IMG/VR virus record: IMGVR_UViG_3300042260_000241
Length of the DNA: 64,000 nucleotides
Source: a virus
Taxonomy: Duplodnaviria; Heunggongvirae; Uroviricota; Caudoviricetes
Reading direction: 5' to 3' (one strand)
Within the stretch, counting starts at the first letter, position 1, and every line of letters begins with the position of its first letter. The notes under the pieces were generated by a model. That model saw nothing but the letters and a program-made list of their open reading frames with translations. It was not told the DNA's origin and ran no database searches. This document shows positions 15,141-64,000 of the stretch, in pieces. The translations under genes and the position numbers were made by a program.

Positions 15141-15147
15141 TTAAGTT

Positions 15148-15818: not shown

Positions 15819-15821
15819 TAT

Positions 15822-16200: not shown

Positions 16201-16228
16201 ATTGATCACATATAAATTGCCGGGAGGC

Positions 16229-16317: not shown

Positions 16318-16321
16318 AGAT

Positions 16322-16397
16322 GCACCGTTCGTCTATCGGTTTAGGACACCAGCCTTTCACGTTGGTAAGATGGGTTCGATTCCCATACGGTGTACCA
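16322..16397 (+). tRNA. tRNA-Glu(TTC) (second copy; assignment tentative)
   Basis: Anticodon stem ccagc/gttgg, loop ctTTCac, T-arm atgggTTCGATTcccat, CCA. Confidence 0.5.
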
Positions 16398-16404
16398 GAT
16401 TTCT

Positions 16405-16479
16405 GGTCTCAAAGTGTTCATGGACGCACGCGACACTGTCACTGTCGAAGAAGGGGATCGTTACCCCTTGGGACCGCCA
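16405..16479 (+). tRNA. tRNA-Asp(GTC)
   Basis: Anticodon stem cgaca/tgtcg, loop ctGTCac, unusual T-loop ATCGTTA, CCA. Confidence 0.65.
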
Positions 16480-16485
16480 AGTTTT

Positions 16486-16560
16486 GCCGGATTAGCACAG
16501 CGGTAGTGCAATCGCCTTGTAAGCGATAGGTCGTCTGTTCGAACCAGACATCCGGCACCA
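16486..16560 (+). tRNA. tRNA-Thr(TGT)
   Basis: D-arm tagcacagcggtagtgc, anticodon stem atcgc/gcgat, loop ctTGTaa, T-arm gtctgTTCGAACcagac, CCA. Confidence 0.65.
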
Positions 16561-16688
16561 AGACACTACGCCTCGCAGCGGTGTCAATCTCAACATAGGG
16601 TTGAGCGTGTATAGTTCGGGTCTACGCCAGTAGGTCTTTTCGGTCACCACGTAGAGTGACGGCTAAAGTTCGTAATGCCACAAATTTT

Positions 16689-16762
16689 GCCCGGTTAGCT
16701 CAAAAGTAGAGCATACGACTGATAATCGTAAGACAGAGGAGCGTTACCTCTACCGGGTACCA
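16689..16762 (+). tRNA. tRNA-Ile(GAT)
   Basis: Anticodon stem tacga/tcgta, loop ctGATaa, CCA. Confidence 0.65.
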
Positions 16763-16768
16763 AAACAT

Positions 16769-16853
16769 GGAGGTGCCGCCGTAATGGTATGGCAGGAGAC
16801 TGTAAATCTTCCGACTTAGGTCACAATAGGTTCGATCCCTATCACCTCCACCA
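16769..16853 (+). tRNA. tRNA-Tyr(GTA)
   Basis: Type II. Anticodon loop ctGTAaa, long variable arm, T-arm aggTTCGATCcct, CCA. Confidence 0.65.
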
Positions 16854-16861
16854 AGTTTAAT

Positions 16862-16941
16862 GGACTTCTGGTATTAGCAGGGAAGTACGCCGTGGGATTA
16901 ATCCTTCGGAGGCGTTGGTTCAATTCCAACGAAGTCCACCA
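16862..16941 (+). tRNA. tRNA-like, anticodon undetermined (contains the GGATTAATCC palindrome; possibly Leu-type or a pseudogene)
   Basis: Good acceptor (ggacttc/gaagtcc), T-arm gttggTTCAATTccaac and CCA, but I could not find a canonical anticodon stem. Confidence 0.35.
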
Positions 16942-16981
16942 AGTTTACATTATATCGCATTTGTGGTATAATAAAGAATAT

Positions 16982-17057
16982 TCCGAAGTAGCACAGAGGT
17001 AGTTGCAGCGCACTGTTAATGCGCCTGTCGTAGGTTCGATCCCTACCTTCGGAGCCA
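16982..17057 (+). tRNA. tRNA-Asn(GTT)
   Basis: Anticodon stem gcgca/tgcgc, loop ctGTTaa, T-arm gtaggTTCGATCcctac, CCA. Confidence 0.7.
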
Positions 17058-17127
17058 AGTTTTAGAGTAGGTTCAGCAAATAAAAAGCATTCAACTTGTA
17101 ATTGAAAACGCAAAAACTACTCTGTTG
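17058..17127 (+). ncRNA. Y-RNA-like element B (reduced member)
   Basis: agtttt-AGAGTAG-gTTCAGCAAa ... aaaaa-CTACTCT-gtt, with an internal anticodon-arm-like hairpin ttcaa-cttgtaa-ttgaa. Confidence 0.45.
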
Positions 17128-17132
17128 TATTT

Positions 17133-17216
17133 GCCTAGGTGGTGGAATGGTATACACTCTGGTCTTAGAAGCCAGCGCCGCGAGGATTGAGAGTTCGAGT
17201 CTCTCCCTAGGCACCA
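17133..17216 (+). tRNA. tRNA-Leu(TAG)
   Basis: Type II. Anticodon stem ctggt/gccag, loop ctTAGaa, T-arm gagagTTCGAGTctctc, CCA. Confidence 0.7.
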
Positions 17217-17568
17217 TGTTTTGTAAGTGTCAGCAAGAGAAAGTCACGCTGGTCAACATTCTTCGAAGGTGTTGGTCAGTAGAAGGTAGCGGGTTCGATC
17301 CCCGTCCGATCGGAAGATCGGAATACAGTTGGAGTATCGTCTGGACTATTATCCCGAGTGACGTACCGAGTCCCGGCCGGCTTAATTACACGGGTGAATG
17401 GTGTCTATAACGATGGGGACACTACTTACAAATTCAATACTCGCCTTGACTGATGGCGTAGAGAAGGATAAATTGTCAGTCATCTTTTTAAAGCGTACTG
17501 CTGAAGTTGGTTCAGTTAGATAGGGAGATCCAATTGCCTATATCGTTAGTATGCTTTAAAAAGATTTT

Positions 17569-17643
17569 GGGGGCATGGCGTAATTGGGAACGCAGTAGCT
17601 TTGCAAGCTTCAGTTCGGGGTTCGATTCCCCGTGCTTCCACCA
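17569..17643 (+). tRNA. tRNA-Ala(TGC)
   Basis: Acceptor gggggca/tgcttcc, D-arm gcgtaattgggaacgc, anticodon loop ttTGCaa, T-arm cggggTTCGATTccccg, CCA. Confidence 0.6.
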
Positions 17644-17904
17644 AGAATACTAAGACAATACTCGGTACTGTGAGTAGATGGAAACCGACCCATGCGAGAC
17701 TGCGTGGGCTTCAATTACGCAGGCATTGGTAATTCTGTGCAGGTCAGATTGACGATGCGAAAGTAAGTCGGTCCAGTAGGGTCAGGAAAAGTATTGTCGG
17801 CGGAAAAAGCTGCCGGACGTCAGAAGTTAGATTCATACACATCGGTATCCATGGACCCGGTGGCAATTTGTTTCTAACGCCGTGTATACGTACAAGATTT
17901 TTAT

Positions 17905-17981
17905 GCCCCGTTAACTCAGTGGATTAGAGTACTAGGCTACGAACTTAGGAGTCGGGCGTTCGAATCGCTCACGGGGTGCCA
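17905..17981 (+). tRNA. tRNA-Arg(ACG)
   Basis: Anticodon stem ctagg/cttag, loop ctACGaa, T-loop TTCGAAT, CCA. Confidence 0.65.
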
Positions 17982-17987
17982 AACAAT

Positions 17988-18063
17988 GCCAATATAGCTC
18001 AGATGGTAGAGCAGCGGACTGAAAATTCGTGTGTCGGTGGTTCAATTCCACCTATTGGCACCA
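17988..18063 (+). tRNA. tRNA-Phe(GAA)
   Basis: D-arm tagctcagatggtagagc, anticodon loop ctGAAaa, T-arm ggtggTTCAATTccacc, CCA. Confidence 0.7.
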
Positions 18064-18067
18064 ATAT

Positions 18068-18150
18068 GCACATGTGGCGGAATTGGTATACGCGCATGGT
18101 TGAGGTCCATGTCCTTCGGGTTGAGAGTTCGAGTCTCTCCTTGTGCACCA
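18068..18150 (+). tRNA. tRNA-Leu(GAG)
   Basis: Type II. Anticodon stem catgg/ccatg, loop ttGAGgt, T-arm gagagTTCGAGTctctc, CCA. Confidence 0.6.
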
Positions 18151-18156
18151 AGTTTA

Positions 18157-18230
18157 CGCGGGTAGGGTGGTCACCACTGCAGTCTCATAAGCTCGCAGCA
18201 TCGGCGGTTCGAATCCGTCACCCGCATCCA
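18157..18230 (+). tRNA. degenerate tRNA-like with a CAT anticodon loop (ctCATaa) and a weak anticodon stem
   Basis: T-arm ggcggTTCGAATccgtc, acceptor 3' strand plus CCA, but only 3 bp in the anticodon stem. Confidence 0.3.
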
Positions 18231-18296
18231 GTTTTAGGATCCATTCAGCAATCTTAAAAATTTCACTGTTAATGAAACCAAAAGAGGATCCTGTTA
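18230..18296 (+). ncRNA. Y-RNA-like element C (reduced member)
   Basis: gtttt-AGGATCC-aTTCAGCAAt ... aaaaga-GGATCCT-gtt, with an internal hairpin tttca-ctgttaa-tgaaa. Confidence 0.45.
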
Positions 18297-18301
18297 TTTT
18301 T

Positions 18302-18376
18302 GGTGATATAGCATAGACGGATATGCAGGGCTCTCATAAGGCTCACAGGAAGGATCGTTACCTTCTATCACCACCA
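18302..18376 (+). tRNA. tRNA-Met/Ile2(CAT)
   Basis: Acceptor ggtgata/tatcacc, anticodon loop ctCATaa, T-loop ATCGTTA, CCA. Confidence 0.6.
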
Positions 18377-18391
18377 TATATAGAATATCAT

Positions 18392-18468
18392 CGGAGTGTA
18401 GCACAGCCTGGTAGTGCGCTTGCTTTGGGAGCAAGAGGTCCAAGGTTCGAATCCTTGTACTCCGACCA
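18392..18468 (+). tRNA. tRNA-Pro(TGG)
   Basis: D-arm gcacagcctggtagtgc (Pro-like), anticodon stem cttgc/gcaag, loop ttTGGga, T-arm caaggTTCGAATccttg, CCA. Confidence 0.7.
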
Positions 18469-18476
18469 AATTTAGG

Positions 18477-18749
18477 ATGAATATGATTGTTAACCCTTTG
18501 AAAAAGAATGTTCTGGTTGCAGAACGTAATCGTGAAAACACAACTGCCAGTGGAATAGTAGTACAAGGCGTTGAAGGTCTTGGTGAATCCAAGTCTGCTA
18601 AAGTTCTTGCGATTGGGCCAGACGTCACTGAAGTAAAAGTTGGTGATACTGTTTATCTCATGTGGAATAAAGCAAAGCTTGTTAAAGTCGATGGTGCACA
18701 ACGTGCTATCGTCGCTGAAGAAGACATTGTTGCTGTTTTAGAAGATTAA
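18477..18749 (+). CDS. co-chaperonin GroES-like protein (functional analogue of T4 gp31)
   Basis: MNMIVNPLKKNVLVAERNRENTTASGIVV...VKVGDTVYL...VDGAQRAIVAEEDIVAVLED follows the GroES/Cpn10 sequence pattern. Confidence 0.7.
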   Translation: MNMIVNPLKKNVLVAERNRENTTASGIVVQGVEGLGESKSAKVLAIGPDVTEVKVGDTVYLMWNKAKLVKVDGAQRAIVAEEDIVAVLED

Positions 18750-18751
18750 TT

Positions 18752-18827
18752 GCTGCTATAGCTCTAGTGGTAGAGCGCTTCCTTGGTAAGGAAGAGGTCA
18801 CTGGTTCGAATCCAGTTAGCAGCACCA
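18752..18827 (+). tRNA. tRNA-Thr(GGT)
   Basis: D-arm tagctctagtggtagagc, anticodon stem cttcc/ggaag, loop ttGGTaa, CCA. Confidence 0.7.
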
Positions 18828-18842
18828 TTCCAGGAGTTTTAT

Positions 18843-19031
18843 ATGAAAATGAGTGATGGCGGCAAGGGAAGTTCTCCTCGTCCTTATTCTGTAGATAAAG
18901 ATACATACGCATCTAATTGGGATGCTATCTTTGGTAAAAAGAAAAAAGAAGATAATACTGGTGTACAAAAAACCGAGTATTATGATATAATTTCTACTGA
19001 AGATTGCTTAACTGATAAAGACAAACAATAA
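18843..19031 (+). CDS. hypothetical protein
   Basis: A 62-aa ORF between tRNA genes. Confidence 0.35.
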   Translation: MKMSDGGKGSSPRPYSVDKDTYASNWDAIFGKKKKEDNTGVQKTEYYDIISTEDCLTDKDKQ

Positions 19032-19038
19032 AGATATT

Positions 19039-19121
19039 GCCCGAGTGGTGGAATGGTAGACACAGCAGACTTAAAATCTGCCGCCTTGTGCGTACCGGTT
19101 CGAGTCCGGTCTCGGGTACCA
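19039..19121 (+). tRNA. tRNA-Leu(TAA)
   Basis: Type II. Anticodon stem gcaga/tctgc, loop ctTAAaa, T-arm accggTTCGAGTccggt, CCA. Confidence 0.7.
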
Positions 19122-19173
19122 ATATAATTTGCATTGGTAGCACGTCGATGTATAAATAAAGATAGGAGGCACT

Positions 19174-19779
19174 ATGCATTTTATCATTTATAAGACTACT
19201 CACGTTCAATCAGGCAAATATTATATTGGGATGCATTCAACTTCTGATTTAGAAGATGGCTATCTCGGTAGTGGAAAATGGATAAAAGCTGCCGTGAAAA
19301 AGCACGGCAGAGACTCATTTGAAAGAGTAATTCTCAAAGAGCTATCATCATACGATGATATGAAGAATGAAGAAGCTAAAGTAATCAATGAAGAAGTTCT
19401 CAATGATCCGTTATGCATGAATATGATGCATGGTGGAAAAGGCGGCTGGAAAACATTGAATGATTCTGATTCTGCATATCAAAGACGAAGTGAAGCTGGT
19501 AAAAAAGCACACGAAGTTCATAAGCATTTAGTGAATAATCTTCAAAGAGGAAGTAATCAAAAGACTGTTTCTACGTTAAAAGAAAAATACGGCAATGATC
19601 ATTTTGCAAAATTAGGCAAAATGAAAAATGTAACAGATGAATACCGATCAAAATTAAGTAAAGCTCAATGCGGTATGAAAATGATAAACAATGGTAAAAT
19701 AAACACCTTTGTGAAAAAAGAAGAATTGAATGAATACTTATCTAAAGGATGGGTATTAGGAAGAATTAGATCTCAGTAA
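19174..19779 (+). CDS. GIY-YIG homing endonuclease (SegB-like, free-standing in the tRNA cluster)
   Basis: FIIYKTTHVQSGKYYIGMH ... YLGSG is a canonical GIY-YIG motif. T4 segB occupies the equivalent position in the T4 tRNA region. Confidence 0.8.
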   Translation: MHFIIYKTTHVQSGKYYIGMHSTSDLEDGYLGSGKWIKAAVKKHGRDSFERVILKELSSYDDMKNEEAKVINEEVLNDPLCMNMMHGGKGGWKTLNDSDSAYQRRSEAGKKAHEVHKHLVNNLQRGSNQKTVSTLKEKYGNDHFAKLGKMKNVTDEYRSKLSKAQCGMKMINNGKINTFVKKEELNEYLSKGWVLGRIRSQ

Positions 19780-19957
19780 GATAACAGCAGTCGTCGGGTC
19801 TCCAAAACCCTGAAGTGTTGGTGCAACTCCAGCCTGGGATGCCAAATAAAAGTTGTGTCGACGACTAATCTCGGTGCTCCCGTTCTCCCGAGTTAAAATG
19901 ACTGTTTGTGGTTCTCCCCTGACGAGATAAAGCAAAAAGTAAGACGGGGCCAAATAT

Positions 19958-20048
19958 GGAAACGTGGCAGAGTTGGTCTATTGCTCCAGCCTTGAAAACT
20001 GGCGACTCTTAATCGGGTCCGTGAGTTCGAATCTCACCGTTTCCGCCA
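19958..20048 (+). tRNA. tRNA-Ser(TGA)
   Basis: Type II. Acceptor ggaaacg/cgtttcc, anticodon loop ctTGAaa, T-arm gtgagTTCGAATctcac, CCA. Confidence 0.6.
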
Positions 20049-20054
20049 AAATTA

Positions 20055-20144
20055 CGAGGGTTGCCAGAGAGGCCTATTGGCGCATCTTGGAAAGGTGATG
20101 GTTGCGAAAGCGGCACGAGAGTTCGAATCTCTCACCCTCGGCCA
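20055..20144 (+). tRNA. type II tRNA, probably Ser(GGA) (anticodon loop irregular)
   Basis: Acceptor cgagggt/accctcg, long variable arm, T-arm gagagTTCGAATctctc, CCA. Confidence 0.4.
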
Positions 20145-20149
20145 ATTTT

Positions 20150-20229
20150 GTGTGTTTCGTATAAATGTTTAGGGCATCATTACATGAGGGTAAAACCTCC
20201 GGATGTGGGTTCGAATCCCACAACACACA
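20150..20229 (+). tRNA. atypical tRNA-like element without encoded CCA
   Basis: Perfect 7-bp acceptor (gtgtgtt/aacacac) and T-arm gtgggTTCGAATcccac, but the D and anticodon region is aberrant. Confidence 0.3.
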
Positions 20230-20231
20230 AT

Positions 20232-20319
20232 GGAAGATTAAACAGACTGGGTCTGTAACTGTTTCGAAAACAGATTGATCGCTTATGCGGTTGCAGTTCG
20301 ATTCTGCAGTCTTCCTCCA
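20232..20319 (+). tRNA. tRNA-Ser(CGA)
   Basis: Type II. Anticodon loop ttCGAaa, T-arm tgcagTTCGATTctgca, CCA. Confidence 0.55.
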
Positions 20320-20325
20320 ATAAGA

Positions 20326-21471
20326 TTAGAGAATATCAAATTCTGGATATATTGTTTTATATGATGTATTTGCAATTATATCAAATTGTTCTAAAAATTC
20401 TTTAGCACTATCCCAATTTGGGGTATCATATTCTAATAATTCTAATGCAGTTTGAATCAGAACCTGACTTCCTTCTATTTTAGAAGGATTTTTAAAGTTT
20501 TTTAATTTTTCTTTATAAATGTTTTTAACACTCTTTGGTAAATTACTAACTTGAAGAATATTGTCAAGTACTGGACTACTCATAATATGAGTAAACGCAA
20601 TACCAGTTATGCTCATTATTTCTTCTAATGTGGTTATGAGTTCTGGGATATATCCTACGTTTAAAAGACTTATAGTAGAATTTACACCATAGGAAAAATT
20701 TTTATTATTAGAAATATTATCGATGATGTTATTTAAGTCACAACCATGACGTATATAATCATTCACTATCTTATTGCCATCGATACTGAGATTTAATTGG
20801 ATCTTGCAATTTAACTCATTTAGAATAGCAATGATATTTTTATTTGGTTTAGTATAATTTGTAGAAAATGTTATTAGTCGCAATTGCGTTGATTCTTGTT
20901 TAATTAAATTAATTAAGTCTAAACAATCCGAATCTATGAGAGGTTCTCCTCCAGAAATAGTGATAGACACTACTTCTTTGAATGAACCTTTAAGCTTATC
21001 TATGTCAAAGCGATTATTTACTTCAGTAAAATTATATAGATTTTTTAAAAATATACTTTTCTTAGAAAGTTCTCCTAGTTTTGAACTAGAATATGGCGAA
21101 CACATTCTACATGCAAGATTACATGTATTTTTAAGAGATATATTAAATACTTTTGGAAAAGAGTTTGAATTTAGATCAACTGAAATGCCGTATTTAGTAA
21201 AGTCTTTATTCTTAAAAGAACGATATGAAAAAGTTGTATCAGGAACATTGCATGCTTCACAATTATGATTAATAGTATTGGAGATAATGTTTTTTCTTAA
21301 TGATTTAAACTCATCATCAGTCCATATCTTTATAAAAGATTCGACTGGACCTTCAAGTTTTTTATATTTGCAACATGGCGCAATAGTATTATTTTGAAGA
21401 TTTAGTTGAGCATGAAGCCAAGGTACTGCACATCGATTTCCATTTTCAATTAGATCATCTGTAGTTTTCAT
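20326..21471 (-). CDS. radical SAM domain protein
   Basis: CNLACRMC matches the CxxxCxxC radical SAM cluster motif and ITISGGEPLI is a SAM-binding motif. GC content is much lower than in the surrounding sequence, and the gene is on the opposite strand. Confidence 0.7.
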   Translation of the reverse strand: MKTTDDLIENGNRCAVPWLHAQLNLQNNTIAPCCKYKKLEGPVESFIKIWTDDEFKSLRKNIISNTINHNCEACNVPDTTFSYRSFKNKDFTKYGISVDLNSNSFPKVFNISLKNTCNLACRMCSPYSSSKLGELSKKSIFLKNLYNFTEVNNRFDIDKLKGSFKEVVSITISGGEPLIDSDCLDLINLIKQESTQLRLITFSTNYTKPNKNIIAILNELNCKIQLNLSIDGNKIVNDYIRHGCDLNNIIDNISNNKNFSYGVNSTISLLNVGYIPELITTLEEIMSITGIAFTHIMSSPVLDNILQVSNLPKSVKNIYKEKLKNFKNPSKIEGSQVLIQTALELLEYDTPNWDSAKEFLEQFDIIANTSYKTIYPEFDIL

Positions 21472-21520
21472 AAAATAAAAAAAAAAAAAAAATAAGTATA
21501 TAACATTATATATAGATCAT

Positions 21521-21595
21521 GCGGGCATGGTGCTAGTGGTAACACATAACTTTGCCAAAGTTAAGTTGCGGGTTCAATTCCCGCTGCCCGCTCCA
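21521..21595 (+). tRNA. tRNA-Gly(GCC)
   Basis: Anticodon stem taact/agtta, loop ttGCCaa, T-arm gcgggTTCAATTcccgc, CCA. Confidence 0.7.
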
Positions 21596-21608
21596 TTTAG
21601 GATTATGT

Positions 21609-21764
21609 ATGAACGAGTTAAATGAACACGGTGTTCCACTACATGCATGCAATGAGTATAGACATGATGAACATTGGTGGACATGGGCAAAATGGATTAC
21701 ACAAAATTGTAAAAGACTTGGTTCAGATGGACTGAACGTATATTACCAAAAGCCTGTACAATAA
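21609..21764 (+). CDS. hypothetical small protein
   Basis: A 51-aa ORF following the tRNA. Confidence 0.3.
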   Translation: MNELNEHGVPLHACNEYRHDEHWWTWAKWITQNCKRLGSDGLNVYYQKPVQ

Positions 21765-21789
21765 TTCGTGATTGTGGTATAATATAAGT

Positions 21790-22065
21790 ATGGTAAATGA
21801 TAAAGAACATGAAATTATGTCAATCACTCAGGAAGAATGTTCCGAAGTGATTCAAGCAATTAGCAAGATCAATCGATTTGGTTTTGATGGACGACATCCT
21901 GAAAAGACTTACAATAATCGTGAACATCTTGAGGAAGAAGTAGGAGACGTCTTAGCAATGATTGATCTTCTACTTGAGAATGAGATTGTGTCTTGGGCTA
22001 ATGTGAACAAGGCACGTAGAGCAAAGTTTGAGAAGCTCCGTCAATGGAGCACTATCATGGACTAA
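21790..22065 (+). CDS. MazG-like NTP pyrophosphohydrolase (small)
   Basis: EEVGDVL matches the MazG EExxE/D motif. An early promoter TATAAT lies at about 21776. Confidence 0.45.
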   Translation: MVNDKEHEIMSITQEECSEVIQAISKINRFGFDGRHPEKTYNNREHLEEEVGDVLAMIDLLLENEIVSWANVNKARRAKFEKLRQWSTIMD

Positions 22066-22070
22066 ATAAT

Positions 22071-22144
22071 GCGGGATTGGTATAGGGGTTGTGCCCTAGT
22101 CTTCCAAACTAGAGAGACCGGTTCGAGCCCGGTATCCCGCTCCA
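22071..22144 (+). tRNA. tRNA-Gly(TCC)
   Basis: Anticodon stem ctagt/actag, loop ctTCCaa, T-arm accggTTCGAGCccggt, CCA. Confidence 0.65.
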
Positions 22145-22168
22145 TTTAACTTTAACCAGGAGAAAGCA

Positions 22169-22300
22169 ATGAAACGAAAACTGATCGTCAAGCAGCGTAA
22201 CCGCTTCGTTGCTTTGGCACAATTCCGAAAAGCGGGAGTGCATCGCAAAACTAATAAAGCTTTGCGTAAATCACTCAACCAAGCTATTTTGGAAGTGTAA
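22169..22300 (+). CDS. small basic protein (possible bS21-like ribosomal protein fragment)
   Basis: A 43-aa ORF with a strong AGGAG Shine-Dalgarno sequence. FVALAQFRKAGV resembles the S21 FDVALRRFKRSCEKAGV segment. Confidence 0.3.
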   Translation: MKRKLIVKQRNRFVALAQFRKAGVHRKTNKALRKSLNQAILEV

Positions 22301-22366
22301 CTCAAAGGCTAGAGTACCCGGCTTTTAACCGGATAGTTGTGGGTTCGAGTCCCACCACTTCTACCA
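22291..22366 (+). tRNA. tRNA-Lys(TTT)
   Basis: Anticodon stem ccgg/ccgg, loop ctTTTaa, T-arm gtgggTTCGAGTcccac, CCA. Confidence 0.65.
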
Positions 22367-22510
22367 TATAGTTAAGTACATTTTGTCACTATCGTATGGG
22401 TAAGCCCATCAATCTCCCCTCAACACCGGAGTCGCGCTCGGTTCGTAGGGATCGGAATGGATTGAAATAGCTACCAGGCCTGACAACTTGGGAAATGTAC
22501 TTAACTATAT
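22367..22510 (+). ncRNA. long-stem hairpin element (family 2, copy 3)
   Basis: 17-bp inverted repeat TATAGTTAAGTACATTT / AAATGTACTTAACTATA flanking about 108 nt. It lies between the tRNA-Lys CCA and tRNA-His. Confidence 0.4.
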
Positions 22511-22587
22511 GGTGACTATAGTGTAAAGGTTCAGCACCTCGCTCTGTGAAAGCGATAGAATGGGATCGTTCCCCATTAGTTACCCCA
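22511..22587 (+). tRNA. tRNA-His(GTG)
   Basis: An extra G-1 opposite a C discriminator, anticodon stem tcgct/agcga, loop ctGTGaa, CCA. Confidence 0.7.
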
Positions 22588-22594
22588 TGAATAT

Positions 22595-22670
22595 GGATCC
22601 TTAGCTCAGCGGTACGAGCAACTCCCTTACAAGGAGAAGGTCATAGGTTCAATCCCTATAGGATCCACCA
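22595..22670 (+). tRNA. tRNA-Val(TAC)
   Basis: D-arm tagctcagcggtacgagc, anticodon loop ctTACaa, T-arm ataggTTCAATCcctat, CCA. Confidence 0.7.
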
Positions 22671-22778
22671 AGTTATAGGATAGGTTCAGCAAACCATAAC
22701 GCATGCGAATGGATCGCAATTTGACTTCTAATCAAACCTTGGGGGTTCAATTCCCTCTGCAAAACAACTATCCTGTTG
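22671..22778 (+). ncRNA. Y-RNA-like element D (tRNA-like member with T-arm)
   Basis: agttat-AGGATAG-gTTCAGCAAa ... aaaacaa-CTATCCT-gtt. Internally it has an anticodon-arm-like hairpin tttga-cttctaa-tcaaa and a T-arm gggggTTCAATTccctc. Confidence 0.5.
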
Positions 22779-22800
22779 AATACGAATACTCTACGAATTC

Positions 22801-22926
22801 GGAGATGTGATGTAATGGTAGCATAGCATAGCAAAAAACCAATTCTGTAAAGAATTGTTCCAGCATATTCTAAGCTCAACTTTGTAAAAGTTCTTGTCCG
22901 TGGTTCGAATCCCGGCATCTCCACCA
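22801..22926 (+). tRNA. tRNA-like gene with a ~50-nt internal insertion (two tgtaaa-loop hairpins)
   Basis: Perfect acceptor ggagatg/catctcc, D-arm, T-arm and CCA, but about 126 nt long. Confidence 0.35.
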
Positions 22927-22931
22927 ATTTC

Positions 22932-23006
22932 ATCTCTGTAGCTCAAAGGTAGAGCGCTGCTTTGACATAGCAGATACGGCGGATCGTTACCGTCCAGAGG
23001 TACCAT
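22932..23006 (+). tRNA. tRNA-Val(GAC)
   Basis: Anticodon stem ctgct/agcag, loop ttGACat, T-loop ATCGTTA, CCA. Confidence 0.6.
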
Positions 23007-23007
23007 G

Positions 23008-23085
23008 CGCTTGTGACGAAAACTGGTAAACGTGCTTGTCTCAAACACAAGATTTTGAGGGTTCGACTCCCTCCGAGCGCACCAG
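23008..23085 (+). tRNA. tRNA with anticodon CAA and a short variable arm (identity uncertain)
   Basis: Acceptor gcgcttg/cgagcgc, anticodon stem cttgt/acaag, loop ctCAAac, T-arm gagggTTCGACTccctc, CCA. Confidence 0.5.
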
Positions 23086-29603: not shown

Positions 29604-30581
29604 ATGAAAACAGGCATCCTCATCGGGCGCTTTCAGCCCTTTCACGTCGGTCACTTACATTCTGTCGGAGTGGCAGCATCCCAAGTAGACAAGCTCTACA
29701 TTCTCGTTGGTTCGGCAAATGCATGTCGATCAATCAAAAACCCTTGGACTTTTGCAGAACGAAAAGATATGATTCGTTCAAAACTTTGGTCTGCACACAT
29801 CACTAATGTTGAGATAGTACCTCTCAATGATTATCCCTATAACGATACGCAATGGATCGCTGATGTTCGAGCAACTGCTGAACATTATGACATGGGAAAG
29901 CCTACACTCTTTGGTCACATGAAGGAAGGTAATGACTATCTTAAATGGTTTCCTGATTGGAAGTACCGCGATATTGAAACTCCTCATCCGGTGAATGCCA
30001 CATCTATTCGTCAACGTATGTACGCGACTGACGATTCAACAATGCCCCGCACAGTACGTGATGATTTTGCATATTATGAAAAAGAAAAGAAACTTTTTGC
30101 AAATTACCCATTTCCAGAAACACTTAACTTCAACTGTGGAGACGCTGTCGTCGAATGCCAAGGACACGTCCTTCTTATCCGTCGGCTCCGTGCGCCGGGG
30201 GCAGGAGCTTGGGCTCTACCTGGTGGGTTTAAAAACGGGAACGAGTCCTTTTTGGACTGCGCAGTACGAGAACTACAAGAAGAAACAAATATTCGAGTCC
30301 CTGAGAAAGTCCTTCGAGGATCAATCGTAAAGACTGAATTGTTTGACTCTCCAAAGCGTTCATTTGGAATTCCACGCAATACGCTTGCCGTGTACTTCCG
30401 TATCAATCCTGATCCAGATGGTGGTCTACCTCGTGCAAATGGCGCAGATGATGCAGCTGAATGCAAATGGTTTCCTCTCACCGATGTGCTTAATTCAATG
30501 GAATTGTATGACGACCATGCGCACATCATCTCCAAGGTCACTGGTGTAATGCCCATGCCGGCATTTGTCGGTGTACGATAA
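29604..30581 (+). CDS. natV: bifunctional NMN adenylyltransferase / Nudix hydrolase (NatV/NadM-Nudix)
   Basis: GRFQPFHVGH matches the (H/T)xGH nucleotidyltransferase motif. A C-terminal Nudix box GGFKNGNESFLDCAVRELQEETNI is present. Confidence 0.8.
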   Translation: MKTGILIGRFQPFHVGHLHSVGVAASQVDKLYILVGSANACRSIKNPWTFAERKDMIRSKLWSAHITNVEIVPLNDYPYNDTQWIADVRATAEHYDMGKPTLFGHMKEGNDYLKWFPDWKYRDIETPHPVNATSIRQRMYATDDSTMPRTVRDDFAYYEKEKKLFANYPFPETLNFNCGDAVVECQGHVLLIRRLRAPGAGAWALPGGFKNGNESFLDCAVRELQEETNIRVPEKVLRGSIVKTELFDSPKRSFGIPRNTLAVYFRINPDPDGGLPRANGADDAAECKWFPLTDVLNSMELYDDHAHIISKVTGVMPMPAFVGVR

Positions 30582-30629
30582 TTCGTCAATTTGTTATAAT
30601 TAATCATCAACTAAAGTAAGGAGCTTACT

Positions 30630-32030
30630 ATGAAACTCGCTAAATCAATCATTCTTAACACCGATAGTTACAAAGTCTCGATGTTCAAACAGTATCCGAT
30701 TGGCACTACTGGCGTCTACAGCTACATTGAATCTCGTGGTGGTCGTTACGACGAAACTGTATTCTTCGGTCTGCAAGCATTCATTAAGGAGTATCTACTT
30801 GAACCAATCACACAAGCCGACATTGACTTGGCGGATGAGATTCTTTCTGCACACGGGGAACCTTTCAACAGGGTCGGCTGGGAATATATCCTGCAGACGC
30901 ACGGTGGTTTCCTCCCAGTGGTTATTCGTGCTGTACCTGAAGGCACTGTGGTCCCTGTCAAAAACGTTCTGGCAACAATCGAGAACACTGACCCAGAATG
31001 TTTCTGGTTGACAACCTATCTGGAAACTGCTCTGCTTCGTGCAGTGTGGTATCCCACAACAGTTGCTACTCAAAGCAAATATATTAAGAACATTATCAAA
31101 GACTTTTTGGAGCGTACTGGTGACCCTACTCTCATTGATTTTAAGTTGCACGACTTTGGTGCTCGCGGTGTTTCTAGTATGGAGTCTGCTGGAATCGGCG
31201 GCGCCGCTCATCTCGTTAACTTTATGGGAACGGATACTATTACGGGGATTCTTTACGCTCGTGAGTATTACAACGCTGGCATTGCTGGTTTTAGTATTCC
31301 TGCCGCCGAACACAGCACCATCACAAGTTGGGGTCGTGAAAACGAGGTAAAAGCATATGCAAACATGGTTCAACAATTCGCCAAACCTGGTTCCATTGTT
31401 GCTGTTGTTAGCGACAGCTATGATGTTTATAATGCCGCTTCCAAACTTTGGGGGGAAGAACTTCGTCAACAAGTTATTGATAGTGGTGCAACTATCGTTA
31501 TTCGCCCTGACAGTGGTGATCCTGTGGAAGTAAACCGTCGCCTAGTTGAGATCCTAGGAGAAAAGTTTGGCTACACTACAAACGCAAAGGGATTCAAGGT
31601 CCTAAACAATGTTCGTCTTATTCAAGGTGATGGTGTTAACGAACTTACTATTCGTTCTATCCTTGGCTCTTTCATGGCAATGGGTTGGTCTGCTGACAAT
31701 ATTGCTTTTGGTATGGGTGGAGCTCTACTTCAACAAGTTGACCGCGACACTCAAAAGTTTGCAATGAAGTGTAGTTCTATGCAAATGAATGGCTTGTGGA
31801 ACGATGTGCAGAAAGACCCTATCACCGATCCTGGCAAGAAATCTAAAGCAGGTCGTGTCACTCTTTGGAAGAGTGGTGGCGAATGGATTAGTGCAGTCGA
31901 TCGACCAACCGGCTGGTATGACCGTGCGATCGGTGAAGTCGAAGAAGTCCTTGAAGAAGTCTATCGTGATGGTAAACTAATCACCGAATACACATTCGAA
32001 GACGTACGTAAAGCTTCAAACGCTATCTGA
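30630..32030 (+). CDS. nadV: nicotinamide phosphoribosyltransferase (NadV)
   Basis: A 466-aa NAPRTase-family protein. Its N-terminus MKLAKSIILNTDSYKVSM is typical of NadV/Nampt. It lies adjacent to natV, as in KVP40-like phages. Confidence 0.8.
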   Translation: MKLAKSIILNTDSYKVSMFKQYPIGTTGVYSYIESRGGRYDETVFFGLQAFIKEYLLEPITQADIDLADEILSAHGEPFNRVGWEYILQTHGGFLPVVIRAVPEGTVVPVKNVLATIENTDPECFWLTTYLETALLRAVWYPTTVATQSKYIKNIIKDFLERTGDPTLIDFKLHDFGARGVSSMESAGIGGAAHLVNFMGTDTITGILYAREYYNAGIAGFSIPAAEHSTITSWGRENEVKAYANMVQQFAKPGSIVAVVSDSYDVYNAASKLWGEELRQQVIDSGATIVIRPDSGDPVEVNRRLVEILGEKFGYTTNAKGFKVLNNVRLIQGDGVNELTIRSILGSFMAMGWSADNIAFGMGGALLQQVDRDTQKFAMKCSSMQMNGLWNDVQKDPITDPGKKSKAGRVTLWKSGGEWISAVDRPTGWYDRAIGEVEEVLEEVYRDGKLITEYTFEDVRKASNAI

Positions 32031-54284: not shown

Positions 54285-55064
54285 TTGGCAAGCTCAAGAA
54301 AAGCATCACTTAAGAGCGTAGATAATGAATCACATGATAATAAATCCCCAAGAGTTGCAGTGAACAATTCGTTAAAAATAAGGATTGATGACTTAAAAAC
54401 ATTCGAACCACTTACACAGAATCAAAAAATATTTTTTGATTCCTATAAAAGAGGTGATTATTTTGTAGCATTACATGGAGTTGCCGGAACTGGTAAAACA
54501 TTTTGTGCATTGTATAAAGCACTAGAAGAAGTACTCGATAAGAGTAATCCATTTAAAAAGATTATTGTTGTTCGTTCAGCAGTACAATCACGTGAAATTG
54601 GTCATTTGCCTGGAGACGTGACCGAAAAAATGGAAATCTATCAACAACCATACCGTCAAATTTGCGAAACATTATTTGGTCGCAAAGATGCATGGGATAG
54701 ATTAGAAGAACAAGGTTATATTGAATTCATTTCAACTTCGTTCATTCGCGGTATGTCATTTGACGATGCAATTATTATCGTTGATGAAATGCAGAATTTG
54801 ACGTTTGAAGAAATTGACACTGTTATGACTCGTGTTGGTTACCGTTCTAAAATCATTTGGTGCGGTGATTATAGACAAACTGATTTGAATAAAAAGAAGA
54901 ATGATGTCACTGGTATTTTGAAGTTTTTTGACATTGCATATCATATGGGTGCATTTACAAAGATTGAATTTACAGTTGATGATATTGTTCGAAGTTCATT
55001 GGTCAAGGATTATATTTTGGCCAAATTAAAATATGAAGACAACGTTTCACCACATTCATCATGA
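54285..55064 (+). CDS. phoH: PhoH-like ATPase
   Basis: HGVAGTGKTF is a Walker A motif and IIVDEMQNL a Walker B motif. Confidence 0.75.
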   Translation: MASSRKASLKSVDNESHDNKSPRVAVNNSLKIRIDDLKTFEPLTQNQKIFFDSYKRGDYFVALHGVAGTGKTFCALYKALEEVLDKSNPFKKIIVVRSAVQSREIGHLPGDVTEKMEIYQQPYRQICETLFGRKDAWDRLEEQGYIEFISTSFIRGMSFDDAIIIVDEMQNLTFEEIDTVMTRVGYRSKIIWCGDYRQTDLNKKKNDVTGILKFFDIAYHMGAFTKIEFTVDDIVRSSLVKDYILAKLKYEDNVSPHSS

Positions 55065-55692
55065 GATTGATAAGCTTACCCGTATCGATTCACCGGGTGG
55101 TAGACTATATCAAACGCCAACCGGTCGATCCTATCCATCGGTCACATCTGTCCTCGGAATCCTTGGAAAAGCAGAAATCCTTGAGTGGAGAAAACGGGTT
55201 GGAGAAGACGAAGCAAATAGGATCTCGTCAAGAGCAGCACGTAGAGGCACTGCTATACACACGCTCTGCGAACATTATTTACTCAACGAGAACGTCAATC
55301 CTGGACCTTTTGATTTAGATACATTTAAGTCTTTAAAGCCATATCTAGACAATATAAATAATATACATTGTCTAGAGACTCAACTTTATTCAGATTTCCT
55401 TCAAGTTGCCGGTACTGTAGATTGTATTGCCGAGTATGAAGGAAAACTTTCTATAATTGACTTTAAAACGTCAAAGAGAGTTAAGTCACGAGACGATATT
55501 CACGGGTATTTCATGCAGACAGCTGCATATGCTGTTATGTTTGAAGAAAGAACCGGAATTCCAGTTGGAAAATTGGTTATCATCATGTCTGTCGATGATG
55601 ATAAACCATTAATTTTCAAAGAGAAACGCGACGATTGGATAAATAGATTTATAGAGCTAAGGGAAGATTATTCAAAGCTCATGAACAAATAA
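55033..55692 (+). CDS. putative PD-(D/E)XK-like nuclease
   Basis: VDCIAEYEGKLSIIDFKTSK gives a D...E.K arrangement. The start codon is uncertain. Confidence 0.35.
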   Translation: MKTTFHHIHHEIDKLTRIDSPGGRLYQTPTGRSYPSVTSVLGILGKAEILEWRKRVGEDEANRISSRAARRGTAIHTLCEHYLLNENVNPGPFDLDTFKSLKPYLDNINNIHCLETQLYSDFLQVAGTVDCIAEYEGKLSIIDFKTSKRVKSRDDIHGYFMQTAAYAVMFEERTGIPVGKLVIIMSVDDDKPLIFKEKRDDWINRFIELREDYSKLMNK

Positions 55693-60519: not shown

Positions 60520-61266
60520 ATTTGTAATATAAAAAGTAGGATTAGCGATCCATATGCTATTTCTGACTTTTTATCTAATGATGATATACAACATTTAATA
60601 GAACTTTATAAATCATATCATGTTAAAGTTCACAAAAATACAGGACCAATTGTACTTGACTTGAATCATGTATTTGACGATCACGTAATTTCAAAAATTC
60701 TTCATAAGATACAGAACGAAATTGGACTATATGAAATAACTTCTGCGTTTTTCTTTGAAACGACATACCCGCACGTTATCCATAATGATGATTTAATTCA
60801 GTTACCTAATGGTATATATAAGGCTATTACAATTCCATTAGAGATTAAACGTGAATACGAATCAAATGATTTTCCAAAGTTATGTTTCTTTGATCAGTTT
60901 TATTTTCACGGTCCATCTAAGTTTTTTAAAAATAGTGAAAATGATAATATCAAAGTTCATTATAATAAAAGTGTTTATGATTATAGTCAAATAGATGGCA
61001 TCTTAAACGATAATGTGATAAATGACGATACATACCAAAAGCTTTTTACACATATAAAACCAAAATGGTTAGAAGGTCTTAGTTTACATTCAACATTAGA
61101 ATGGAAACCAACAACAGCTTTGATATTTGATAGCACTAGATTGCATGCGGCAAGTGATTTTAGAAAACTTGGAATAACATCTAAGATGGCTATAAGTGTT
61201 TTTACTACTATATCATCAGAAGAAAAGATAAAATATATTGATTTAAAAGAGGTGCAAGATGTTTGA
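60502..61266 (+). CDS. hypothetical protein (possible fourth cupin oxygenase)
   Basis: HVIHNDD ... RLHAASDF. Confidence 0.3.
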   Translation: MRNEQQICNIKSRISDPYAISDFLSNDDIQHLIELYKSYHVKVHKNTGPIVLDLNHVFDDHVISKILHKIQNEIGLYEITSAFFFETTYPHVIHNDDLIQLPNGIYKAITIPLEIKREYESNDFPKLCFFDQFYFHGPSKFFKNSENDNIKVHYNKSVYDYSQIDGILNDNVINDDTYQKLFTHIKPKWLEGLSLHSTLEWKPTTALIFDSTRLHAASDFRKLGITSKMAISVFTTISSEEKIKYIDLKEVQDV

Positions 61267-61972
61267 ATGGACTTTTAGAAAAGCAGCAATATTCCAAATT
61301 GGCATGACACTAAGTTTACCAATTGCGTTTATGTATTTAGATGTAAGTTGGTTGGTGCTGTCTTTATTTGTTTTTTGGAGTTTTTCTTTAGCAACTACTG
61401 TAGGTTTACATAGACTTTTTGTTCATAATACATATAAGACTTCAAGATTTTGGCATTGGGTTTTAGGTTTAACAAGTTGTTTATCTATGACATCTAGTCC
61501 TATACAGTGGGCTGTTGCGCATTACACACATCACAAATATAGTGATACTGATAAAGATCCTCATAATGCAAGTCTTGCGCGAATATTTGGCATTGCGTAT
61601 TTTTCAAATGCAAATTACGATTTTACTAGAGCTAGAAGACTTATGAAAGATAATATGCATCGCTTCTTATTTAAATATTATTTGTTAATTCCTATCGTTT
61701 GGACTACAACATGGTATTTGATAGGCGGAGTTTCTGCTGCATATTTTTCATGGGCATTTCCAGCTGTGATATATATGTGGGCAAGTGCAATACATACAAG
61801 ATTATCACACCAAAATAAAAGAGCAGTAAATATGCATCCATTGTTTGTGTTATTGTTTCTTGGTGAACATTTGCATAGAGATCACCATGATACTCCAAAT
61901 TTGCAAAATTACGCAACTGAAAAAGGACAGATTGATCCTGGATATTGGTTAATAAAGTTGATTAGACAATGA
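61259..61972 (+). CDS. membrane fatty-acid desaturase/hydroxylase-like di-iron protein
   Basis: Histidine boxes HRLFVH, HYTHHKY and HRDHHD, plus predicted transmembrane helices. Confidence 0.55.
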   Translation: MFEWTFRKAAIFQIGMTLSLPIAFMYLDVSWLVLSLFVFWSFSLATTVGLHRLFVHNTYKTSRFWHWVLGLTSCLSMTSSPIQWAVAHYTHHKYSDTDKDPHNASLARIFGIAYFSNANYDFTRARRLMKDNMHRFLFKYYLLIPIVWTTTWYLIGGVSAAYFSWAFPAVIYMWASAIHTRLSHQNKRAVNMHPLFVLLFLGEHLHRDHHDTPNLQNYATEKGQIDPGYWLIKLIRQ

Positions 61973-62688
61973 CAAGAGTTAAATTGACAGTAGGATGGTT
62001 TTTGTTTTCTTTGATAACATTTCCATTTTTAGCATATTATAATTTTGATCCAGCATTAGCAATACTGGGTGTGTTGTGGGCGTGGCTAGTATTGATTATT
62101 GGTCAAGTTTTAGCAGCACACCGATATTTTGTTCATACGTCATTTGAAGCAAATTGGTTTCAACAGTTTATTATGAATTTCATGTTAACTATTGGATTTC
62201 AGGGTACTTCACAGGATTGGATAATATCACACAGTTATCACCACAAACATTCAGATACTGATATTGATCCAACTAATATTAAAGTGATAGGATTTTTCAA
62301 GAATTATACTAGTCTTTGGCAATTACATTCGCCAGTTGATGCAGGTGGAATACGATTAAGTCTTAGAAGTTTGCAAAATCCATTAACTAAATTTTTTCAT
62401 AATAACTATTATGTCATTTGGATATGCTGGGCTTTATGTTTAAATCTAATATCGTTTGAAGTGTTTGTATGGTTTTTCTTTTTGCCAGTCATATTTAGTC
62501 ATTGTTTTATGAATTTGCAAAATCATTTAGGTCATAGATCTAATGTAAGTTATGTTATTAATACTTTAGCGCCCGGAGATGGTTATCATAGGTATCATCA
62601 TGAAAATCCAAGAGAATATAAATTCGGTGAGTATGATATGATTGCTTTTTTGATAAAACATCTTTTTAAATCAAAGGGTGTACATTAA
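61969..62688 (+). CDS. membrane fatty-acid desaturase/hydroxylase-like di-iron protein (tandem paralog)
   Basis: Histidine boxes HRYFVH, SHSYHHKH and HRYHHEN. Confidence 0.55.
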   Translation: MTRVKLTVGWFLFSLITFPFLAYYNFDPALAILGVLWAWLVLIIGQVLAAHRYFVHTSFEANWFQQFIMNFMLTIGFQGTSQDWIISHSYHHKHSDTDIDPTNIKVIGFFKNYTSLWQLHSPVDAGGIRLSLRSLQNPLTKFFHNNYYVIWICWALCLNLISFEVFVWFFFLPVIFSHCFMNLQNHLGHRSNVSYVINTLAPGDGYHRYHHENPREYKFGEYDMIAFLIKHLFKSKGVH

Positions 62689-62715
62689 ATCGCATTTGGT
62701 TTATAATATAAAGAA

Positions 62716-62779
62716 TTGTTGTAATCCCTTCAAAGCGAAGGACTTCTGGACGCGGGTTCGACTCCCGCCATCTCCACCA
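62716..62779 (+). ncRNA. ssrA: tmRNA (ssrA) acceptor piece of a circularly permuted two-piece tmRNA
   Basis: T-arm gcgggTTCGACTcccgc, then acceptor 3' strand catctcc, discriminator A and CCA. The 5' partner ggggatg is encoded about 90 nt downstream. Confidence 0.55.
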
Positions 62780-62867
62780 AAAGCACATACATCGCTTGTC
62801 ACTTGAAACACTGCGATGGTACAGATGATAGTAGTGAAGTAATATCTGCTTAATGTGTGCTTTTGAT

Positions 62868-63035
62868 GGGGATGCCATGGTTTCGACAGAGGTAGATAGT
62901 AGAGACGGCAGCACGAGAGTTGACCGACGTAATCGGCAAAATCAAAGTAAACGCAAACGATGAAGTTTACGCATTGGCAGCTTAATCGCTGACTAGGGTT
63001 CGATGGGTTCCTCGTAACAGAATACCCATCCTTTA
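62868..63035 (+). ncRNA. ssrA: tmRNA (ssrA) coding piece
   Basis: The 5' end GGGGATGCCATGGTTTCGACAGAGG matches the tmRNA GGGG..GG.TTCGAC signature. The tag reading frame ends ...GCAAACGATGAAGTTTACGCATTGGCAGCTTAA, encoding ANDEVYALAA followed by a stop codon. Confidence 0.6.
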
Positions 63036-63050
63036 ACCAAAGGATCTATT

Positions 63051-63620
63051 ATGAAAAGAAATATAGCAGCAGCTATTCTTCTTGTGGTGGTAGTAATCAC
63101 TGGAGCAGTTTATTTTAAAGAGGTTGCACACCGCAAGGCAGAAGCCGCAAAACAAGTAGCACTAGAAGTCCAGCAAGAAATCAATAAAGCGCTACAAAAA
63201 GAAATTGAGCGTAAAGAAGCAAAGATGTCTAGAGACCTACATTGCTTGGCTCACAATATATACTTCGAAGCCGGAGGCGAATCCTATGAAGGAAAGGTTG
63301 CAGTGGCTCAAGTAACAGTTAACCGTAAAGAAGCAAAAGGCTTCCCGAATCGGGTTTGTGATGTTGTACATCAAAGTGCAGTGTTTGAAGATGGGTCGAA
63401 GGTATGTCAGTTTTCATGGACGTGCGATGACAGACGACAACCAAGTAGACAATTATACAAAGAATGTTATGAGATCGCCAAAAAGGTATTGATCGAAGGC
63501 AAGAGATTGCCTATAATAGGTAAAGCGTTATTCTTCCACAATGACACAGTTAGACCATCGTGGGCACATAAGAAAAGGCTAATTGCTAAAATCGGTAATC
63601 ATTCATTCTATGGAGTATAA
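63051..63620 (+). CDS. SleB/CwlJ-like cell-wall hydrolase with an N-terminal membrane anchor
   Basis: CLAHNIYFEA...VAVAQVTVNR...VCDVVHQ...QFSW are Hydrolase_2-family motifs. Confidence 0.65.
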   Translation: MKRNIAAAILLVVVVITGAVYFKEVAHRKAEAAKQVALEVQQEINKALQKEIERKEAKMSRDLHCLAHNIYFEAGGESYEGKVAVAQVTVNRKEAKGFPNRVCDVVHQSAVFEDGSKVCQFSWTCDDRRQPSRQLYKECYEIAKKVLIEGKRLPIIGKALFFHNDTVRPSWAHKKRLIAKIGNHSFYGV

Positions 63621-63899
63621 ATGTTGACAGTAGTCGATCCATTCGGAGAGATTGGTCTCACAGACGAGTTCGTTCTAACAAAACGATTTAGGTCTGCAAA
63701 TGAGTTTTCAATCTATATCGAAGAACAAGTGAAAGAAAAGAAATGTGGGTATATGGAAGCGATATTAAACTATTGCGACGAGAAGGACTTAGATCCTCAG
63801 AATATATCCTCATTGATCAGCCAGTCCCTAAAGGACAAGGTTAGAGTTGAAGCAGAAGAGCTAAACTATATTAAAAAACGAGCACAATTGCCGTTATGA
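63621..63899 (+). CDS. hypothetical protein
   Basis: ORF. Confidence 0.4.
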   Translation: MLTVVDPFGEIGLTDEFVLTKRFRSANEFSIYIEEQVKEKKCGYMEAILNYCDEKDLDPQNISSLISQSLKDKVRVEAEELNYIKKRAQLPL

Positions 63900-64000
63900 T
63901 AACACTATCTCCCTTTGACGTATACAAAATGTACTTAGCGTTTAAGCTACATTTTACAACAGATAATTATGATGCGATTGCTATGAAAGGCAGAGTCCGA

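Follow-up and report, generated by a model that had tools for sequence, protein, structure and literature searches.

A beta-type, circularly permuted tmRNA gene encoded by a T4-like phage

The expression of a permuted ssrA gene as two base-paired RNAs which still tag proteins is known from Caulobacter crescentus, the experimental model of two-piece tmRNAs (Keiler, Shapiro and Williams, 2000, as cited in PMC9004378 and PMC3968760). A two-piece tmRNA has likewise been described for a betaproteobacterial lineage (Sharkady and Williams, 2004, as cited in PMC3968760) and corresponds to the beta_tmRNA family of Rfam (RF01850), from whose model alignment the beta-type features considered below were taken. 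In phages, two-piece tmRNAs were published in 2022, with 53 unique permuted tmRNAs reported among 18,146 phage genomes, including phages of Pelagibacter, Synechococcus, Caulobacter, Stenotrophomonas, Citrobacter and others (PMC9004378, Table S1), and the tmRNA database comprises 79 phage tmRNAs and 11,946 permuted ones (PMC11915505). Because such phage RNAs have been published (PMC9004378), a phage two-piece tmRNA is of a known kind.

In Methylophilales phage Melnitz, which like Pelagibacter phage HTVC008M belongs to the group with the two-piece phage tmRNAs published in 2022, ssrA is located directly upstream of the coactivator gene (PMC9004378). This gene (MZ577097.1, 45984-46436) scores 106.7 bits with the alpha_tmRNA model and is followed at its 3' side by a glutamine riboswitch (52.8 bits). 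Stenotrophomonas phage vB_SmaS-DLP_6 (KU682439) possesses a permuted tmRNA, unannotated in the record, which scores 103.7 bits with beta_tmRNA, above the threshold of this model.

The window analyzed here, a stretch of 64,000 nucleotides from the IMG/VR virus record IMGVR_UViG_3300042260_000241, contains a phage-encoded circularly permuted ssrA gene, an assignment supported by ARAGORN, by Rfam and by covariation in related viral loci. ARAGORN returned a single permuted call in the window, at 62687-63076, with the tag ANDEVYALAA. Membership in the permuted tmRNA families RF04321 and RF01850 was defined by a covariance-model score no lower than the curated gathering threshold, and the locus matched both beta_tmRNA (161.4 bits for a gathering threshold of 84, E = 6e-50, model positions 1-331 of 331) and tmRNA_permuted (146.1 bits for a gathering threshold of 47, E = 8e-29, full length). 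The initial annotation had read from the DNA a tmRNA 5'-end signature, an in-frame proteolysis tag and an acceptor half located upstream instead of downstream, and had named ARAGORN and the Rfam covariance models as checks; both programs agree with it, and each of the features it described was located at the positions it gave. As expected for a permuted gene, an acceptor piece ending in CCA is followed by an intervening sequence and then by a coding piece which opens with the acceptor 5' strand (Table 1). The tRNA-like domain comprises a 7-bp acceptor stem with a G3·U70 pair, a discriminator A, a 5-bp T-stem and a 7-nt T-loop. The pairing of GGGGATG with CATCTCC proposed earlier was recovered over all 7 bp, its sole G·U being pair 3. 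When both pieces were cofolded with RNAcofold, the minimum-energy structure included the acceptor stem, the T-arm, P2a, the local hairpin of the acceptor piece, P5 and the S2 post-tag hairpin. Chance is excluded as the source of these tmRNA features.

Table 1. Features of the permuted tmRNA gene and neighboring genes (window positions; strand left empty where none is given)
Feature	Positions	Strand	Details and basis
PhoH	54285-55064		
PDDEXK nuclease	55033-55692		
Sigma-70-like promoter (putative)	62679-62707	+	-35 TGTACA 62679-62684; 17-nt spacer; -10 TATAAT 62702-62707; promoter scan
Acceptor piece	62714-62779	+	~66 nt; Rfam alignments, RNAcofold, anchored pair counts, covariation alignment A1
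Outer P2 strand, acceptor piece	62717-62722	+	UGUUGU
Local hairpin, acceptor piece	62727-62741	+	CCUUC/GAAGG
P2a strand, acceptor piece	62742-62748	+	ACUUCUG
T-arm	62752-62768	+	GCGGG 62752-62756; loop TTCGACT 62757-62763; CCCGC 62764-62768
Acceptor 3' strand	62769-62775	+	CATCTCC; then discriminator A 62776 and encoded CCA 62777-62779
Intervening sequence	62780-62867	+	88 nt; stem-loop fold; same layout in relatives
Coding piece	62868-63031	+	Rfam alignments, cofold, covariation; 3' boundary approximate, Rfam match reaches 63039
Acceptor 5' strand	62868-62874	+	GGGGAUG; pairs with CAUCUCC over 7 bp
CCAUGGUUUCGA	62875-62886	+	Rfam alignment
P2a strand, coding piece	62887-62893	+	CAGAGGU; covariation
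Outer P2 strand, coding piece	62908-62913	+	GCAGCA; outer helix covariation
Hairpin region at PK1 position	62914-62945	+	Rfam alignment, cofold
Tag reading frame	62953-62985	+	Resume codon GCA 62953; ANDEVYALAA; stop UAA 62983-62985; GCA AAC GAT GAA GTT TAC GCA TTG GCA GCT TAA; direct reading, ARAGORN
Helix P5	62974-62996	+	UAA stop codon in its loop; minimum-energy fold
Post-tag H-type pseudoknot	62995-63030	+	S1, S2 covariation; loop UCCUCGUAACAGAAU
Pseudoknot stem S1	62995-62998 with 63009-63012	+	AGGG with UCCU; switches between subgroups
Pseudoknot stem S2	63002-63008 with 63024-63030	+	GAUGGGU with ACCCAUC; covariation
Hairpin AUCCUUU/AAAGGAU	63028-63045	+	Direct reading
Cell-wall hydrolase	63051-63620	+	Pfam Hydrolase_2; PHROG endolysin
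T4 gp33-type late-transcription coactivator	63621-63899	+	Pfam Trans_coact

Upstream of the gene, a promoter scan found a sigma-70-like element with 10 of 12 matches and a predicted transcription start at ~62714, and the 5' end of the acceptor piece is placed on the basis of this promoter position. The initial annotation had already proposed an early-type promoter here. Its TATAAT stands: it aligns to UAUAAU of the Rfam beta_tmRNA model, and a -10 hexamer is found 39-40 nt ahead of the P2a strand in ~19 relatives, most of which have a TTGACA-like -35. The -35 of the window, TGTACA, is weak; promoter function at these positions is plausible. An 82-codon ORF on the minus strand (62666-62914) overlaps the tmRNA gene and is almost certainly spurious. 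Directly upstream of the promoter lie two tandem, overlapping fatty-acid-desaturase-like ORFs (61259-61972 and 61969-62688, plus strand); Pfam FA_desaturase matches the first, and the second, a paralogue that shares 25% identity with it, has the histidine boxes. Such a gene pair would be an unusual auxiliary cargo for a phage.

In the coding piece, an A-rich stretch with UAAAC at its end directly precedes the resume codon. A PK1 pseudoknot was sought in the window but gained no support, as the segment at the PK1 position yields hairpins only and is unlike that of all relatives. Past the post-tag pseudoknot, the ribosome-binding site of the hydrolase ORF begins after ~10 nt. No terminator lies between the tmRNA and this ORF, a search for intrinsic terminators on the plus strand from 62000 to 64000 having found none, which leaves the coding piece with only an approximate 3' boundary. 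The hydrolase and gp33 genes are probably co-transcribed with the tmRNA. The hairpin at the end of the gene overlaps both the 3' strand of S2 and the Shine-Dalgarno sequence of the hydrolase ORF (AAGGA, 63040-63044). Through this hairpin, translation of the hydrolase might be linked to the folding or processing of the tmRNA.

Relatives were collected by scanning IMG/VR with two exact motifs of the window, which matched 67 and 62 viral stretches. In the matched stretches, ARAGORN identified 72 permuted tmRNAs, mostly with ANDxx(F/Y)ALAA tags, and every tested relative with a GGGGATG...TTCGAC coding-piece start passed the beta_tmRNA threshold. Four other permuted calls were obtained among the T-arm matches: two loci (L066 and L019) are alpha-type, and two (L028 and L053) pass tmRNA_permuted only. 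RNAalifold, applied to a MAFFT alignment of the joined pieces, recovered only the acceptor stem, the T-arm and the outer helix. Because subgroup indels misaligned P2a, this alignment was replaced by gap-free modules cut by fixed anchors, so that no structure was presupposed.

With this procedure (alignment A1), 99.2% of the cells of the tRNA-like core proved to be paired and 7 pairs were changed on both sides, a level reached by none of 500 shuffles, and slid controls were 47-58% paired. Across 20 distinct relatives the T-stem is 100% paired, 3 of its pairs having changes on both sides, and P2a is 97.9% paired over its 7 bp, with 4 such pairs. Similarly, the 6-bp outer P2 helix shows compensatory switches (UGUUGU/GCAACA, UGCUGU/ACAGCA and GAUAGU/GCUAUC). 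The acceptor stem is invariant in relatives, which is uninformative either way since the search motifs included it. For the post-tag pseudoknot, the alignment (A2) was anchored solely on the invariant loop: S2 is 97.4% paired and all 8 of its pairs are changed on both sides (0 of 500 shuffles match), and S1 varies in a compensatory manner by subgroup (AGGG/UCCU, GAGU/ACUU and GAGG/CCUU). A loop-to-coding-piece contact with a C/A - G/U pattern was also considered and was dropped, the pattern being broken by locus L039. In 34 distinct 10-residue tags of relatives, residues A1, N2, A9 and A10 are invariant and the codons differ synonymously, which indicates that the tag residues are under purifying selection across relatives. 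The identity of the gene, its structural parts and their conservation with covariation are established directly by these data.

The intervening sequence of the window is delimited by a closing stem, AAAGCACAUA.../...UGUGUGCUUU, which adjoins CCA on one side and, on the other, is followed by a 4-nt UGAU leader (62864-62867) placed directly before G1. Its fold has an energy of -23.7 kcal/mol (z = -2.1). In all relatives the same layout is kept, a closing stem and then UGAU or UAAU, with interiors that are unrelated and sizes that range from 26 to 208 nt (median 85). In three relatives, L013 and L064 (both 200 nt) and L092 (208 nt), the intervening sequence contains an ORF of 61-62 codons which begins ~10 nt past CCA; it stops inside the conserved UGAU leader in L013 and L064 and ~20 nt upstream of the leader in L092. 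These ORFs are of two mutually unrelated types, and a search of PHROG with them gave no match. In addition, T-arm-like segments occur within the intervening sequences of L039/L058 and of L094 (GGGUUCGAAUCCCAC, GGUUCGAGCCCAAC), and they look like remnants of tRNA-like insertions.

The gene of the window has the gene order of the RF01850 family and agrees with it in the T-loop GGUUCGAcUCC, the acceptor stem with G3·U70 and the encoded CCA. Also common to both are the GGUUUCGAC motif and P2a, a PK1-position hairpin, the resume context UAAAyGCAAAyGA, a tag of 10 residues (ANDxxxALAA type) and the post-tag pseudoknot; the promoter -10 aligns too. The gene of the window differs from this family in being phage-encoded, in the length of its intervening sequence (88 nt for a consensus spacer of ~30-40 nt in the model, the Rfam beta alignment placing a 76-nt stretch of the window against 17 omitted model positions in the spacer), and in its acceptor pair 5, which is A-U. 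Moreover, the middle P2 pairs are non-standard in the window, which has the local acceptor-piece hairpin instead, and the terminal GC-rich hairpin of the model, read as a terminator, is deleted in the window alignment. The 22-nt coding-piece start of the window is essentially absent from bacterial genomes: it is found in 62 viral stretches versus one contig in a collection of 185,579 bacterial and archaeal species, each represented by one genome. This sole match is a 46-kb contig (CALMJT010000228.1) of an 'uncultured Alteromonadales' MAG. Besides a permuted tmRNA, whose tag is ANDSTYALAA, the contig has a tRNA-Arg and a lysozyme-like gene; it probably comes from a phage and was mis-binned into a bacterial genome.

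Among cultured phages, the nearest by gp32 identity are Pelagibacter phage HTVC008M (58%), T4-like cyanophages (~57%) and Methylophilales phage Melnitz (56.5%). Like the phage of the window, Melnitz is a T4-like myophage of the same broad group, with a two-piece tmRNA whose intervening sequence is long, a promoter of early type and the gene order PhoH, PDDEXK, small ORFs, SsrA, gp33, gp59, gp32. Its tmRNA is nevertheless alpha-type, with the T-loop GGCAGUA, the acceptor GGGGGCG and the tag ANDNYVPVDYALAA, whereas the tmRNA of the window belongs to the beta type, carries a tag of 10 residues and is separated from gp33 by the hydrolase gene. The window contains neither the alpha-type tRNA-like domain nor the glutamine riboswitch of Melnitz, a search of the window for such a riboswitch with Rfam (E up to 1) having returned no match. 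DLP_6 is the only deposited phage record which matches beyond the T-arm: nucleotide searches of 50,697 deposited phage genomes found nothing close to the tmRNA or to the final 14 kb of the window, the matches being T-arm-sized with the exception of this partial one. It covers 28% of the query at 82% identity, and the DLP_6 gene differs in its tag (ANDDSFAPMAIAA) and in its location, next to a tRNA array and away from gp33. The Caulobacter crescentus tmRNA, in turn, is alpha-type and chromosomal and has another tag; the likeness lies in the permuted gene giving two base-paired RNAs, which for the window is predicted from the sequence. What appears to be new here is a beta-type tRNA-like domain belonging to a largely phage-restricted sequence clade, with long intervening sequences (26-208 nt) and no terminator.

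The locus is very probably a functional two-piece tmRNA gene of a T4-like phage. Its most likely mode of action is the standard two-piece tmRNA route, as in Caulobacter, from which we infer processing, charging, the use of host SmpB and a benefit to the phage. A precursor would be transcribed from the sigma-70-like promoter, starting at ~62714, and its acceptor stem would form between 62769-62775 and 62868-62874, with the closing stem of the 88-nt intervening sequence as a clamp. Cleavage by RNase P after the UGAU leader would then leave a GGGG 5' end, while 3' trimming would halt at the encoded CCA (62779), leading to the loss of the intervening sequence. The resulting acceptor (~66 nt) and coding (~165 nt) pieces would be held together by the acceptor stem, P2a (7 bp) and outer P2 (6 bp). 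G3·U70 is the alanine identity pair of tRNA-Ala and tmRNA, and the RNA would presumably be charged through it by the host AlaRS. Host SmpB and EF-Tu would bring the charged RNA to ribosomes stalled on broken mRNAs, translation would resume at GCA 62953, append ANDEVYALAA and end at UAA, and the ribosome would be freed, the tagged peptide being marked for host ClpXP-type proteolysis. During infection, such an activity may benefit the phage, which also has 32 tRNA genes, by maintaining its supply of ribosomes. No SmpB gene was found in the window or in the fetched related loci, the query being an E. coli SmpB sequence confirmed by 100% matches to annotated SmpB genes; the RNA would therefore rely on host SmpB, and its function would depend on compatibility with it.

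The absence of SmpB from the window also bears on an alternative, in which the RNA is a decoy or modulator that competes for SmpB or retargets tagging and so shuts down or redirects host trans-translation. Among deposited phage records, those with SmpB are mostly of temperate-phage or prophage type, and a tmRNA-like RNA of mycobacteriophage DS6A, which lacks a tag, is reported to inhibit the endogenous tmRNA of E. coli upon expression there (PMC11915505). A decoy is nonetheless unlikely here: the tag frame is complete with a canonical ALAA end and its residues appear to be under purifying selection, and conservation extends to the resume-codon context, P5 and the post-tag pseudoknot, for which a simple SmpB sponge would have no need.

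The genes around the tmRNA identify the window as part of a T4-like phage genome, of lytic type. Upstream are found NrdA/B, RNase H, DNA ligase, NAMPT, PhoH, a PDDEXK nuclease and 32 tRNA genes, and gp33 begins 545 nt downstream of the tmRNA gene. An exact look-up of the hydrolase gene gave no match elsewhere; identical copies of gp33 on other contigs are followed by gp59 and then gp32. The flanks are thus T4-type phage genes, unlike those of the chromosomal ssrA of betaproteobacteria, the source organisms of RF01850, and the gene occupies a Melnitz-type slot, with PhoH/PDDEXK on one side and gp33-gp59-gp32 on the other. In 50 related viral loci the tmRNA is followed on its own strand by a hydrolase homologue, and in 36 by a gp33 homologue. 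Because these flanking proteins are so diverged (just 31-55% identical to those of the window) and the position is yet conserved, the tmRNA appears to have been kept at one slot for a long time.

Several other features of the window deserve mention. The 32 tRNA genes form an array (13737-23084, plus strand) which covers all amino acids but tryptophan, with small ORFs interspersed and a radical-SAM ORF (20326-21471) on the opposite strand. Within it, the tRNA Ile(UAU) at 14460-14554 (plus strand) is 95 nt long, with a variable region of ~24 nt able to form its own arm; it was accepted by ARAGORN and by Rfam (58.9 bits), and such a long extra arm is unexpected for an isoleucine tRNA. A NAD salvage pair (29604-32030, plus strand) consists of an NMN-adenylyltransferase/Nudix fusion and a nicotinamide phosphoribosyltransferase.

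The conserved slot also weighs on the idea of a recently captured host gene, or a decaying relic, devoid of a phage role and derived for instance from an ssrA integration site. It is true that prophages commonly integrate at ssrA and that some phage records contain ssrA fragments (PMC9004378), as illustrated by prophage records of Klebsiella and Escherichia. Such an origin is very improbable for the present gene, which is complete, occupies the same slot with compensatory changes in at least 50 diverged phage contigs, and lies in a genome of T4-like, lytic type with no integrase among the larger ORFs examined in the window; moreover, the single contig with its coding-piece start in the collection of species genomes is phage-like. 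That the tmRNA came from a bacterium through an assembly chimera or contamination, as might be feared for part of a metagenome contig (JGI/IMG, 167,841 bp), is scarcely credible, since the hydrolase-gp33-gp59-gp32 arrangement recurs on independent contigs from other samples, dozens of viral contigs have hydrolase and gp33 after the tmRNA, all on one strand, and G+C stays at 32-43% across the window with no sharp break.

The permuted form had been taken by the initial annotation as a hint at the host lineage. This claim is weak because the tmRNA types of Melnitz and DLP_6 appear not to track their hosts. The tmRNA of Stenotrophomonas is one-piece, and DLP_6 encodes a permuted, beta-type one. 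Similarly, the alpha-type tmRNA of Melnitz groups with alphaproteobacterial lineages, whereas that of its host is found in the gammaproteobacterial/OM43 lineage (PMC9004378). The ANDxxYALAA tag, 10 residues long, is similar to tags of beta- and gammaproteobacteria and is a weak hint at the host at most.

A broader scenario, tentative and with somewhat less than even chances, can be drawn for a functional tmRNA gene of this kind. A phage-restricted beta-type lineage, carried by a clade of uncultured aquatic T4-like phages, would have descended vertically over a long period at a fixed slot upstream of hydrolase-gp33-gp59-gp32. The intervening sequence may then be a tolerant insertion site, of 26-208 nt and ORF-bearing in some relatives, and the tRNA-like domain may have been swapped at the slot, being alpha-type in Melnitz and L066 and beta-type in the window. 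A hydrolase homologue is located downstream of the alpha-type gene of L066, and the alpha-type L019 and Melnitz genes also belong to related T4-like phages. The post-tag pseudoknot loop ACUUG.AAACAGAA is common to Melnitz and several beta-type relatives, which hints that a shared 3' part has been joined to different tRNA-like domains.

For annotation, the practical consequence is that the tmRNA gene should be annotated, that the minus-strand ORF overlapping it should be left uncalled and that no host should be inferred from the permuted form alone. The gene adds one more well-characterized example to the known set of phage tmRNAs, and indicates that an uncultured T4-like clade keeps a beta-type two-piece tmRNA under structural selection at the slot which in Melnitz holds an alpha-type one. 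If the exchange of tRNA-like domains is real, it could track how phages adapt to host classes that differ in their SmpB, AlaRS and RNase P, and the slot would represent a natural experiment in RNA-domain exchange. Should phage tmRNAs have to function with the SmpB of the host, their type could become a marker of host range.
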